This document shows, one piece after another, positions 3,001 to 10,001 of a stretch of DNA of 24,213 nt. The DNA comes from Candidatus Thorarchaeota archaeon. GTDB taxonomy: Archaea > Asgardarchaeota > Thorarchaeia > Thorarchaeales > Thorarchaeaceae. The notes below the pieces were generated by a model that saw only the letters and a list, made by a program, of their open reading frames with translations, searched no databases and was not told where the DNA came from. Within the stretch, counting starts at the first letter, position 1, and each line of letters opens with the position of its first letter. The translations under genes were made by a program, and so were the position numbers. The DNA lies in contig JBHLQM010000054.1 in the NCBI GenBank assembly GCA_048884785.1, positions 1,617-25,829 on the forward strand, written 5' to 3'.

Positions 3001-4134
3001 GGTACTTCTCCAATCACTGTTGATACGGATGCTGATGGATTGAGCGACTCCCAAGAGATCTATCTAGGACTTGGCTGGCCAGGACGCGACCCGATACCAC
3101 TAGACCCTCTCAACAACGATACTGACGGGGACACTCTACTTGATGGACAGGAGATGGTCCTTGAGAACGTGAGCATCATAACCTTCCCATACGAGGCTCT
3201 CACCATGCGCCTCAGATTTGGATCCTGTCCGGTCAATAATGACACGGACTCTGATGGGCTGGATGACGGTCTCGAGCTTCAATATGGCACGTGGCCAAAT
3301 GATGAGGATTCGGATGATGACAACATCAACGACTACAATGAGATATTCGTCACTCACACGGATCCTATGTCGAACGATACGGATGGTGATGAGATCCCGG
3401 ACAATCTAGAGTCGTGGGAGGGCGTTGTGGCGAACACAACGCCGCCTGAGGCAACTACGCCGCCTGTGTATATAGTATCGCAGGACAATGAAACGTGGTG
3501 GCCGTTGTACCCGACTGATGTCAATGACTCAGATACAGACGACGACTATCTGCCAGATGGTCTCGAGCTTGTCTATGGTCTGAACCCACTTGAATGGGAC
3601 GAGAATCACAACGGTATTGCAGATGGATTCGAATACGACTTTGATGGCGATGGTCTGAGTGACGGCGAGGAGTTCTACATCGAGATGACCTGGATGACTC
3701 CCCTGCCCATTGGCAATGACTCGACTGGTCTCTGGCACTGGACGGGTCTCCCAGGAGGTTTCAATAATCCGGATTCAGATGGCGACGGTATTGACGACGG
3801 CACAGAGGTCCATGTCTACGGTACTGATCCAACATCTACAGACACTGATAACGATGGGATCAGTGACAGTGAGGAGATTCAGGTCGGAGGCAATCCGATC
3901 ATCCCCATCACACAGGGCTATCCTGTCTGGATGATGGTGGCAATCATTGGCGGTGCCGGATTCATTGCTGGAATCATCATACCGCCGGTGCTGCGCTTCA
4001 CCTTTAGGAAGATCAGAGGTCGTGGCATGAAGGCAGACACCAAGAAGGCAGACACCAAGAAGGCCACCAAGAAGACCGCTACGAGTAAGAAGACGACCAC
4101 AAAGAAGTCAGGCAAGGAGGGTGATGCTAAATGA
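1..4134 (+). CDS. Giant membrane-anchored surface protein, 5'-partial: amphipathic beta-strand region, ~26 TSP3-like (DxDxDGLxD) calcium-binding repeats, C-terminal TM helix and Lys-rich tail
   Basis: Frame +1 is open from base 1 (EGLREDVLRDFADNINEYF...QPMM), so the true start lies upstream of the window and not at 187. Repeats of the form DTDxDGLxDxxE...TxPxxx run from ~1558 to ~3876. Hydrophobic helix YPVWMMVAIIGGAGFIAGIIIPPVL is followed by RFTFRKIRGRG. Confidence 0.9.
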   Translation, partial: EGLREDVLRDFADNINEYFAKGVVPEEYTGEHVPDPIEDPALTKSWVIEEKQYNDKGDELQPMMRLGTPAQTEDYIGLREMSPTSGVGGPMGWLIDTVLYSLIDLGFQDLAIHVDAAEDLNDYIQGIVEDSRDEIQTWFNNQGLNVTNHDFSTWMPELLPRQMFELWSMIDQLILDAWYEVDEYIGEFFDWIINTPVQEKLTGLVPVFLFRLGTPLNLGSDFASFGAVLRIKLLPDFEIDKTPFESFMNQAVLGGVDMDSFGDAEAQFTEIRKFIDVIPVMEIDLGICAFLPTGNDWVQGLMGQFTIDFFGHAWLKLAFPPVDASNTDRSFIDVREWGLRFELDASFSLSISAFLSPGPGGVISTILEWFSELLSISITLTLSIIFEISKKYQGQGLPSLSTLLFDIIIGVTLSIRILICVFQGTFKVGLRFEQRSGILSGSPLMALAEDPDPVIIHTLSDISTSTIGIYITLYCSLYFGIDLFFTSFGTHFGGPWTTTIDLSASWGDGDYGTEAADLTDTDADGLPDDFEIRMSLLYGTLPEFQLADSSTFLDPNNDDTDNDGLGDKLEIELNTLPWKTDTDDDLLTDYEEHVTYKTNPLLNDTDRDNLTDYQEVKIYDTSPFLVDTDGDMLYDWYEINTEYDVSLTKGTYGAVESVKIGGVYYDDRTDPLNPDTDNDGLLDGEEWDNGVEYMNESEVAMYLYVNFRWTHPLDADTDDDCVGWLWQGPWSDPFYVTDSYLWDLHDGTEVKGQIATIPDLEGYPEVKLVKTNPCNPDTDNDTAWGAVMLYRTDGYELASDPQYDPTNGDEDSDGLKDGYEAIGPGGSGTDAKNPDTDNDHLPDYEDWKLPTDPRNPDCDEDMVLDGDEYFLYGTNPLNNDTDLDGLTDGEELFFFYCNPLVRDSDLDGLTDGEEILRYLTDPLVADTDHDMLSDGYEVFYSKTNPRLFDTDNDRLGDGEELLVFNTNPLDWDTDHDSLDYPNENGTMTLPLSDGDEVLDHGTSPITVDTDADGLSDSQEIYLGLGWPGRDPIPLDPLNNDTDGDTLLDGQEMVLENVSIITFPYEALTMRLRFGSCPVNNDTDSDGLDDGLELQYGTWPNDEDSDDDNINDYNEIFVTHTDPMSNDTDGDEIPDNLESWEGVVANTTPPEATTPPVYIVSQDNETWWPLYPTDVNDSDTDDDYLPDGLELVYGLNPLEWDENHNGIADGFEYDFDGDGLSDGEEFYIEMTWMTPLPIGNDSTGLWHWTGLPGGFNNPDSDGDGIDDGTEVHVYGTDPTSTDTDNDGISDSEEIQVGGNPIIPITQGYPVWMMVAIIGGAGFIAGIIIPPVLRFTFRKIRGRGMKADTKKADTKKATKKTATSKKTTTKKSGKEGDAK
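1558..3876 (+). repeat. Protein-level tandem array of ~26 Asp-rich TSP3-like/DxDxDG calcium-binding repeats
   Basis: Counted by eye: DTDADGLPD, DTDNDGLGD, DTDDDLLTD, DTDRDNLTD, DTDGDMLYD ... DSDGDGIDD, DTDNDGISD. The period is ~22-23 aa in the regular stretches, and several units carry insertions. Confidence 0.9.
4030..4064 (+). repeat. Perfect 15-bp tandem repeat (aaggcagacaccaag x2.3) encoding KADTK-KADTK-KA
   Basis: Directly visible: 4030-4044 equals 4045-4059, followed by aaggc. Confidence 0.9.
4116..4134 (+). promoter_or_regulatory. Shine-Dalgarno-like GGAGGGTGA and ATGA stop/start overlap coupling gene 1 to gene 2
   Basis: GGAGGGTGA at 4116-4124; ATG 4131-4133 overlaps TGA 4132-4134. 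Confidence 0.75.

Positions 4135-10001: not shown

Follow-up and report, generated by a model that had tools for sequence, protein, structure and literature searches.

A multi-propeller protein of a Thorarchaeota archaeon

The window analysed here is a stretch of 24,213 nucleotides (nt) from the genome of a Candidatus Thorarchaeota archaeon (contig JBHLQM010000054.1, positions 1,617 to 25,829). At 4131..10001 it contains an open reading frame for a multi-propeller protein of 1956 amino acids (aa), here called P0001. The frame lies on the + strand, as do all segments of the protein and both of its partner genes. Its start overlaps the stop of the upstream gene by 4 nt, and the next frame begins 13 nt past its own stop. 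P0001 would be an extracellular protein in which domains are nested by insertion around a seven-bladed FG-GAP hub propeller, and we regard this architecture as a whole as likely. The discontinuous hub, the split seventh blade and the modular inserts are borne out by structure prediction and by comparison with relatives.

An initial annotation, made from the DNA letters alone, had proposed this arrangement. The open reading frame is confirmed, and every peptide that it quoted is present in the translation at about the expected places: VWSVEAYDIDHDSHDEIIVGAWDSKVYVF at aa 185-213, YEADEWID at aa 362-369, ALAGPWD at aa 400-406, VVDFG at aa 982-986, IDAAYG at aa 1081-1086, SIWDIVQV at aa 1149-1156, YFRNTG at aa 1217-1222, YWKNTG at aa 1412-1417 and DSFMVATYPYIHMVE at aa 1480-1494.

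Against Pfam, the whole protein matches NHL (E 2.5e-37, 125.5 bits, cut-off 20), FG-GAP_3 (E 7.8e-23, 81.3 bits, cut-off 26.9) and FG-GAP (37.7 bits, cut-off 22.1), and at the level of sequence its repeats are far beyond chance. When the segments are searched separately, FG-GAP/VCBS repeats (PF13517, PF01839) score above the gathering score in three of them, namely aa 52-350 (FG-GAP_3, E 4.6e-10; FG-GAP is also above its cut-off in blades 1-5), aa 1164-1476 (FG-GAP_3, E 2.9e-9) and aa 1524-1900 (FG-GAP_3, E 4.9e-18). Both halves of the NHL block match the NHL repeat (PF01436) on their own (aa 420-697, E 6.4e-35; aa 698-976, E 1.1e-11), and six-blade templates align to them. Pfam has no match for aa 351-419, aa 977-1090, aa 1477-1523 or the C-terminal tail. 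Loops of the DxDxDG type, which are putative calcium loops between strands 1 and 2 of the blades, are invariant among 22 sequences at positions such as D253/D255/D257, D1530/D1532/D1534 and D1592/D1594/D1596.

We found 26 collinear orthologues with 37-70% identity, some of them partial, which retain all segments of P0001 in unchanged order. Where named, they are labelled Candidatus Thorarchaeota, with two labelled Lokiarchaeota. AlphaFold models were made of aa 1-1200 (model 1; mean predicted local distance difference test score (pLDDT) 82.5, predicted template modelling score (pTM) 0.71) and of aa 1080-1956 (model 2; mean pLDDT 73.6), each with a 26-row alignment. In model 1, everything beyond aa 1139 lies below pLDDT 50. 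By DSSP, the two models have five blades in aa 76-342, two sets of six NHL blades between aa 420 and aa 976, a single blade at aa 1095-1136, then five repeats (aa 1184-1476) and seven blades (aa 1525-1900). These counts and their order (five type-A blades, 12 NHL repeats, blade 6, five type-B repeats, seven type-A blades), and the placement of the FG-GAP and NHL repeats by Pfam, agree with what was first read by eye.

The proposed hub propeller and its inserts

The hub propeller opens with five blades of the FG-GAP type (aa 69-342; 4335..5156), recognised by Pfam, DSSP and invariant Asp residues, with DxDxD loops in blades 2-5. Model 1 resolves them as five four-stranded blades within aa 76-342 and places a further blade, whose four strands at aa 1095-1136 have pLDDT 70-80, far downstream (hub blade 6, aa 1092-1136; 7404..7538). 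VIA structure searches were evaluated over the best 50 matches per model, which six- and seven-blade propellers fill. Nine of the 50 for model 1 are alignments to a single propeller that run from aa 61-69 to aa 1134-1166. Sec13 (2pm6_B) superposes with Z 27.9 and a root-mean-square deviation (rmsd) of 2.4 Å over 266 of its 279 residues, in the range 69..1134. Other one-ring matches are Seh1 (6x08_A, 69..1139) and CIAO1 (6tbl_E, 69..1160), and Sec13 together with the Nup145C blade (3jrp_A) aligns 290 residues over the range 61..1166. Since nearly all of six-bladed Sec13 is aligned, and the alignment ends where blade 6 ends, the modelled ring holds six blades. Blade 6 joins blades 1-5 in it from about 750 residues downstream, and there is space for one blade more. 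This means that the modelled hub is interrupted between blades 5 and 6, as had been claimed.

The seventh blade is predicted to be split as well. Its first strand (7a, SIWDIVQV, aa 1147-1157; 7569..7601), a motif shared with the relative P0041, is followed by an inserted five-repeat FG-GAP/VCBS domain (type B, aa 1162-1479; 7614..8567), and the rest of the blade (7b) lies at aa 1480-1513 (8568..8669). In model 2 the five-repeat domain is a self-contained unit with block-mean pLDDT of 54-93, mostly 75-93. It and the last propeller are confident there, and aa 1080-1161 (blade 6 and strand 7a) and aa 1480-1521 fall below pLDDT 50. Such low values are expected if these pieces need blades 1-5, which model 2 leaves out.

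A complex prediction was run with three chains, aa 52-350, aa 1088-1163 and, as the scored partner, aa 1477-1523, using our own alignment. The partner scored ipSAE 0.80, 0.83 and 0.85 (median 0.83) against 0.19 for the best control; with chain 1 replaced, the score falls to 0.19. The runs share at least 78% of their contacts, and the partner has pLDDT of at least 62. The surest contacts form an antiparallel ladder between aa 1150-1156, in SIWDIVQV, and aa 1481-1486, with an expected error of 0.7-1.3 Å for strand 7a. The partner, whose interface residues are 1478-1498 and 1508-1513, also contacts blade 6 (aa 1101-1124) and blade 1 (aa 71-76, 85-92 and 108-111). In the predicted complex, these contacts with blade 6, strand 7a and blade 1 amount to closure of the ring. 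The claim that blade 7 is divided by the type-B repeats is supported: in this prediction, strand 7a pairs with 7b, and the ring closes on blade 1. The seven-blade ring is assembled from separate models, with six blades in one ring and the pieces of blade 7 docking between blade 6 and blade 1.

By this modelling, the five-repeat insert would sit within blade 7, in the loop between strands 1 and 2, where other blades have their DxDxDG loop. The strand at about aa 1505-1513 may belong to blade 7 as its fourth strand, which is how the complex prediction has it, or may close the C-terminal propeller, whose seventh blade has just three strands of its own (DSSP, model 2). A Foldseek search of the PDB with model 2 returned just multi-propeller chains of the DDB1/SF3B3 type (TM-score 0.14-0.28, rmsd 17-34 Å), which are uninformative on the five-repeat domain.

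Between hub blades 5 and 6 lies a putative split beta-sandwich, described as jelly-roll-like in the initial annotation. Part 1 (aa ~355-415; 5193..5375; pLDDT 68-91) is highly conserved, and part 2 (aa 977-1090; 7059..7400; pLDDT 84-94) follows after the NHL block. A profile was built from 12 contiguous versions of the sandwich taken from relatives that lack the insert. Against the PDB it matched 12 sequences at E 0.24-1.3, 11 of which are neuropilin-1, a hyaluronidase carbohydrate-binding module or CBM32 (E 0.3-1.3); the neuropilin matches presumably fall in its coagulation-factor-type domains. Two of the 12 contiguous relatives match Pfam F5_F8_type_C below threshold (13.0 bits, E 0.11; 12.5 bits, E 0.17) over profile positions 41-104 of 127. 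As the match begins at position 41, the first ~40 positions are left for the upstream piece. In the ESM Atlas, F5/8-type-C and CBM32 clusters appear at 0.86 for the sandwich, which we take as a lead only. There are no sandwich templates among the best 50 VIA matches, which propellers fill and which are uninformative on this fold and on that of the five repeats; the sandwich strands themselves are confidently modelled. The split sandwich is probably discoidin/CBM32-like, as judged from these sub-threshold similarities. The jelly-roll claim therefore stands in part: the halves are contiguous in relatives and the F5/8-type-C and CBM32 signals are consistent, but the signals stay below threshold. 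That the halves join is argued from their adjacency in relatives, from the confident pLDDT of both and from blades 5 and 6 being neighbours in the ring.

The sandwich would in turn host two NHL propellers of six blades each. NHL propeller 1 (aa 420-697; 5388..6221) superposes on the NHL domain of TRIM71 (9jur_A) with Z 41.7, rmsd 1.5 Å and 35% identity over 274 of 277 residues. NHL propeller 2 (aa 698-976; 6222..7058) aligns to six-blade templates over the ranges 698/702..970/976 (Z 24-26), and superposes on six-bladed TGW6 and strictosidine synthase with Z about 26. Fifteen of the 50 VIA matches to model 1 are one-propeller alignments (232-289 residues, rmsd 2.2-3.0 Å) that run from aa 378-427 to aa 972-1078. 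This implies that one NHL ring takes strands from both ends of the tandem, so that the chain enters and exits at the same spot. In the model, such a shared spot is what an insert in a hairpin requires, as the NHL tandem is proposed to be. The NHL block is the least conserved segment, and the hub blades and 7b are the best conserved (51% and 48% against 34% in P0028). As a separate observation, NHL propeller 1 has 34-35% identity to vertebrate TRIM71/Lin41 NHL over ~275 residues, which is unusually high for an archaeal-animal pair. This closeness explains the automatic label 'tripartite motif-containing protein 71' on relatives.

Relatives and genomic context

A search for relatives without the inserts had been suggested in the initial annotation, and such relatives exist. 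P0039 (1790 aa) aligns to P0001 aa 55-349 and 979-1810, with an intervening stretch of about 60 aa. In P0041 (1395 aa), sandwich part 1 lies at aa 389-434 and part 2 begins at aa 453, 18 aa apart, and RRLSLETNIWSI (equivalent to PRFSLGTSIWDI at strand 7a) stands just 13 residues ahead of FMVAGTNPKVSFVHV (equivalent to FMVATYPYIHMVEV). With both flanking pairs contiguous, P0041 is without both inserts. Both marks of a nested insertion are thus present, a discontinuous host and relatives in which the host is contiguous.

An exhaustive phmmer search with the non-repetitive aa 973-1163 against 1.84 billion representatives found 63 clusters. The gap from blade 5 to sandwich part 2, which is 627 aa in P0001, was measurable in 55 of them: 10 clusters have 618-648 aa there, 44 have 50-201 aa and one has 314 aa. 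The gap from strand 7a to 7b was measurable in 41 of the 63 and is 290-355 aa in every case. The NHL site is therefore short in 44 of 55 clusters, and a contiguous blade 7 is found in six proteins. The partial protein P0165 (862 aa) has, at the site of the NHL tandem (aa ~331-743), a stretch of ~314 aa that lacks a Pfam match, perhaps another module inserted into that loop.

A tree of the blade 1-5 segment was computed with IQ-TREE (76 rows with a near-complete segment, LG+G4, support by Shimodaira-Hasegawa-like approximate likelihood ratio test (SH-aLRT) only). It is unrooted, with a midpoint root for drawing. The 24 NHL-bearing rows lie on one side of a branch with SH-aLRT 98, which points to the NHL tandem as a single event, limited to the Thorarchaeota clade. 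The six rows that lack the five repeats group as a single clade (99), whose sister is the repeat-bearing P0123 (95); the two together are sister to the NHL clade (94). The missing five repeats are probably a secondary clean loss, with the direction not provable from an unrooted tree. Across the sequences compared, the five-repeat insert is near-universal in the Asgard family and the double-NHL insert marks one Thorarchaeota clade. Searching the organism's own genome with aa 973-1163 returned one copy and no paralogue in the 91%-complete assembly. A search for loci related to P0041 gave only a Myxococcota fragment with 27% identity. Within these searches the family appears confined to Asgard archaea and has a member in a cultured species.

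The two ends of P0001 complete the feature list. At the N-terminus (aa 1-26; 4131..4208), a basic n-region and a hydrophobic helix (aa 4-20 in model 1) indicate a signal peptide or signal anchor. The pattern is kept in full-length orthologues and relatives, and 5'-truncated partial sequences are without it. After the hub comes a second FG-GAP propeller of seven blades (aa 1522-1900; 8694..9830), seen as seven DxDxDG-type repeats, in DSSP and in the Pfam match given above. Seven-blade WD40 templates superpose on it with Z 28-32 (VIA, model 2). The tail (aa 1901-1956; 9831..9998) is of low confidence in model 2 and contains one predicted helix. There is no transmembrane helix at the C-terminus of P0001. 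In many orthologues, not all, an 'RRF' motif lies a few residues from the terminus (for example RRFCAC, RRFGIC, RRFSIC), and this could be a sorting or partner-binding signal.

P0001 lies in a conserved operon with membrane-anchored partners, as judged by gene order and predicted topology. The upstream gene (1..4134, cut at its 5' end by the window) encodes a protein with Asp-rich repeats of the TSP3 type, a signal peptide, a C-terminal transmembrane helix and a Lys-rich tail, and is complete in the contig at 1492 aa. Just before the window, at contig positions ~1500-1620, it has a run of X (bases masked or not resolved) of about 34 codons, across which the frame continues. The downstream gene (10015..11841) encodes a 608-aa protein, P0168, with a signal peptide, an fn3 domain, a C-terminal transmembrane helix and an RRRKS tail. 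Its aa ~100-400 have no Pfam match, are 45-87% conserved among the Thorarchaeota loci and form an uncharacterised domain.

The operon was compared over loci L002, L005-L010, L013, L014, L015, L019 and L020. The upstream gene precedes the P0001 orthologue in 9 of 9 Thorarchaeota loci with an upstream flank (55-84% identity, against 41-65% for P0001 in the same loci), and the fn3 gene follows in 13 of 13 with a downstream flank. In three distant loci without the NHL block, a homologue of the upstream gene is adjacent again (37-38% identity). The fn3 gene was not found in these three and was seen in Thorarchaeota loci only. The pairing of TSP3 gene and hub gene extends from Thorarchaeota to Candidatus Lokiarchaeum ossiferum, a cultured species in whose complete genome a 2078-aa gene ends 3 nt before a family member of 2629 aa. 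After the operon, at 11885-13714, lies a 609-aa right-handed beta-helix (NosD-like) protein. Unlike the neighbouring genes, it recurs at this position in one related locus only (L004, 29% identity); in L020, a weaker match to it (24% identity, E 2.7e-16) precedes the gene pair.

Taken together, the path of the chain would be as follows. After hub blades 1-5 (aa 69-342), it would exit the ring at the connection between blades and enter the sandwich (aa ~355-415 plus 977-1090), one hairpin loop of which would carry the two six-bladed NHL propellers in tandem (aa 420-976). It would then re-enter the hub for blade 6 (aa 1092-1136) and the first strand of blade 7 (aa 1147-1157), and exit a second time, in the loop between strands 1 and 2 of that blade, to form the five-repeat FG-GAP/VCBS domain (aa 1162-1479). 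Residues 1480-~1513 would finish blade 7, followed by the second seven-bladed FG-GAP propeller (aa 1522-1900). Since each inserted module would be tethered at two points, the hub could hold several binding surfaces in a fixed geometry. In integrin-type propellers, the connections between blades (4-1) are on one face and the strand 1-2 loops on the other, so that the arms of the hub should project in opposite directions.

Together with its two membrane-anchored operon proteins, P0001 might form a multivalent complex that serves adhesion or recognition, depends on calcium and sits on a cell lacking a rigid S-layer. The signal-like N-terminus, the conserved neighbours with transmembrane anchors and the invariant DxDxD positions all point to a surface complex, and we infer for P0001 a role as a multivalent calcium-dependent adhesin or receptor. 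A study of L. ossiferum describes, by cryo-tomography, unidentified 'complex surface proteins' and no ordered S-layer (PMC9834061), and the P0001 family is a candidate, no more, for these. A bolder proposal, which we think quite unlikely in its full form, is that the hub protein and the upstream TSP3-repeat protein constitute an ancient two-gene surface receptor of Asgard archaea, that this receptor is among the 'complex surface proteins' named in that study (PMC9834061), and that the Thorarchaeota lineage enlarged its ligand repertoire by placing a double NHL propeller in a discoidin-like loop. If true, it would be an integrin-like solution to cell-cell contact, either independent or pre-eukaryotic.

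Alternative readings and known systems

Several points weigh against the nested architecture and the role proposed for it. Packing was judged from where the alignments start and end, from pLDDT and from the contact list of the complex tool rather than from coordinates or predicted aligned error; the whole hub is in neither model, and the alignments have 26 rows only. The packing of aa 355-415 with aa 977-1090 is thus argued indirectly, and membership of the sandwich in F5/8 type C is not reached, with a best score of 13.0 bits against a gathering score of 28.2 among 12 relatives. In calibration, the mark of the complex tool was reached by 116 of 157 solved complexes and by 2 of 215 mismatched pairs, counts that hold only roughly here as our own alignment and the three chains differ from that calibration. 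The high ipSAE may also reflect, in part, learned propeller geometry, the chains being pieces of one protein that resembles solved propellers. In model 2, 48 of the 50 VIA matches run from model residues 2-19 to 818-843, and two begin at 398 and 403. These start points suggest that, as model 2 is truncated, low-confidence strands of blade 6 or 7b are placed in it at the C-terminal ring or close by. The five-repeat domain, whose repeats may close into a ring, does not appear among these 50 matches, and phmmer of aa 1164-1476 against PDB sequences gave a single match, to a DNA polymerase (E 0.29), which we take as chance. A global MAFFT alignment of the region from blade 6 to C1 places the blade-7 gap between strands of blade 6. 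We rejected this placement because blades are repeats and such alignments shift, and preferred the local motif matches to P0041. The function, finally, is wholly deduced.

The same segments could be arranged differently. With blade 6 and strand 7a counted as one each, the five type-B repeats would make seven (1 + 1 + 5); all are FG-GAP_3-like and might form one contiguous seven-blade propeller, leaving the N-terminal five blades separate, open or differently closed; global MAFFT can indeed align blade 6/7 of insert-less relatives with type-B repeats. We rejected this arrangement, which seems to us most improbable. Nine of the 50 VIA matches put blade 6 in one ring with blades 1-5, and model 2 holds every piece of the supposed propeller, yet only the five repeats are confident in it. 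Moreover, strand 7a pairs with aa 1481-1486 and not with a type-B strand, and the six relatives without the five repeats keep blade 6, 7a and 7b contiguous. It is also very unlikely, in our view, that P0001 is a string of independent linear domains in which the 'halves' on either side of the NHL block are unrelated to each other, being linkers or separate small domains. Neither sandwich piece has a Pfam match, and no direct coordinates underlie their contact, as such a string would allow. However, the pieces are adjacent in P0041 (18 aa) and in 44 of 55 measurable clusters, both are confidently modelled, and a pTM of 0.71 over 1200 residues is high for freely jointed beads. The F5/8-type-C match leaves profile positions 1-40 for the upstream piece, and with blades 5 and 6 as ring neighbours, the excursion starts and ends at nearly one point.

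The main functional rival keeps the nested architecture and makes the NHL propellers catalytic, of the lactonase, lyase or peptidyl-alpha-hydroxyglycine lyase (PAL) type, so that P0001 would be a surface enzyme. Pfam SGL (SMP-30/gluconolactonase) matches with 52 bits (cut-off 26.3), Vgb_lyase and Arylesterase match more weakly, and structural matches include PAL (3fw0_A, Z 32.2) and lactonases (Z 26-28). Against this, the best matches are the binding-type NHL domains of TRIM71, Lin41 and TRIM2 (Z 40-42, 28-35% identity), the SGL match spans just positions 139-218 of the 246 in the profile, and the residues of the NHL block that are invariant in 22 orthologues are mostly Gly and structural. An enzyme thus appears unlikely, and we favour the binding role of the nested hub protein.

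Among known systems, integrin alpha with its alpha-I (vWA) domain is a close parallel in design, combining an extracellular seven-bladed FG-GAP propeller, calcium loops of the DxDxDG type and a domain spliced into the ring, which is ligand-binding in integrin and putatively so in P0001. Besides FG-GAP, P0001 has Itfg2 Pfam matches. In integrin alpha, the propeller is followed by thigh and calf domains and a transmembrane helix, the chain pairs with a beta subunit, and the I domain is a vWA domain between blades 2 and 3. In P0001, by contrast, the insert between blades would be a sandwich hosting two NHL propellers, it would sit between blades 5 and 6, and a second insert would lie inside blade 7. 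P0001 has no Pfam matches to vWA, thigh or calf domains and no C-terminal transmembrane helix, and no integrin beta-subunit homologue was found for it; orthology is not implied. Of the I-domain parallel drawn in the initial annotation, the splicing of a domain into an FG-GAP ring is retained, and the five-repeat insert departs from it in lying within a blade, not between blades. The published Asgard 'integrin-like' family fam15271 is a different family from that of P0001. 'Integrin repeat-containing' Asgard proteins are reportedly described by Liu et al. 2021 (Nature 593:553), as cited by the fam15271 work. Our literature searches on Asgard FG-GAP, NHL and integrin-like proteins found no paper on the P0001 family, with Liu et al. 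2021 not compared.

The hub blades 1-6 superpose on the open six-blade propellers Sec13 and Seh1, which likewise form a ring awaiting a seventh blade. Sec13 and Seh1 rings are completed by a blade from Nup145C, Sec31 or Nup85. In P0001, by contrast, the seventh blade would come from the same chain, about 320 residues on, and the WD40 repeat family is unrelated. NHL propeller 1 resembles those of TRIM-NHL proteins (TRIM71/Lin41, TRIM2, Brat; Z 40-42, rmsd 1.5-1.6 Å, 28-35% identity, 272-279 residues), but the NHL propellers of P0001 are in tandem, extracellular by prediction, inserted in a loop of another domain and outside any RING/B-box/coiled-coil context. With discoidin/F5-F8 type C domains and CBM32, whose fold is an eight-stranded beta-sandwich (jelly-roll), the putative sandwich shares its size (~175 aa when contiguous) and a weak similarity near the '...YVSxDGxxF...' and '...RYLKI...' strands, whereas all its matches are sub-threshold. 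We know of no 557-aa insert in a hairpin loop in the discoidin/CBM32 family.

The predicted arrangement of P0001 follows the A1-B1-C-B2-A2 pattern of nested insertion treated by a survey in Protein Sci 2026 (PMC13114784). According to the survey, about 20% of multidomain proteins contain domain insertions, a minority show nesting, with up to six levels, and inserts are consistently smaller than their hosts (PMC13114784). P0001 would run against this size trend (PMC13114784), with an insert of 557 aa that is ~3 times the size of its host sandwich, and a sandwich plus insert (~735 aa) that is ~2 times the size of the hub. The word 'propeller' is absent from the main text of the survey (PMC13114784).

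If the nested architecture is correct, the chain of P0001 combines two-level nesting with a second insertion in one hub, and holds 31 propeller blades besides a sandwich. Natural variants that have neither insert, one of them or both offer a series for studying how blades and hairpins tolerate very large inserts. The family is also a concrete candidate for the adhesion machinery thought to be needed by syntrophic Asgard cells without an S-layer, on the grounds of its predicted surface location, its calcium-loop repeats and its conserved pairing with a membrane-anchored partner. Compared with the systems above, P0001 takes a known design principle to an elaborate form, and leaves the textbook view unchanged.

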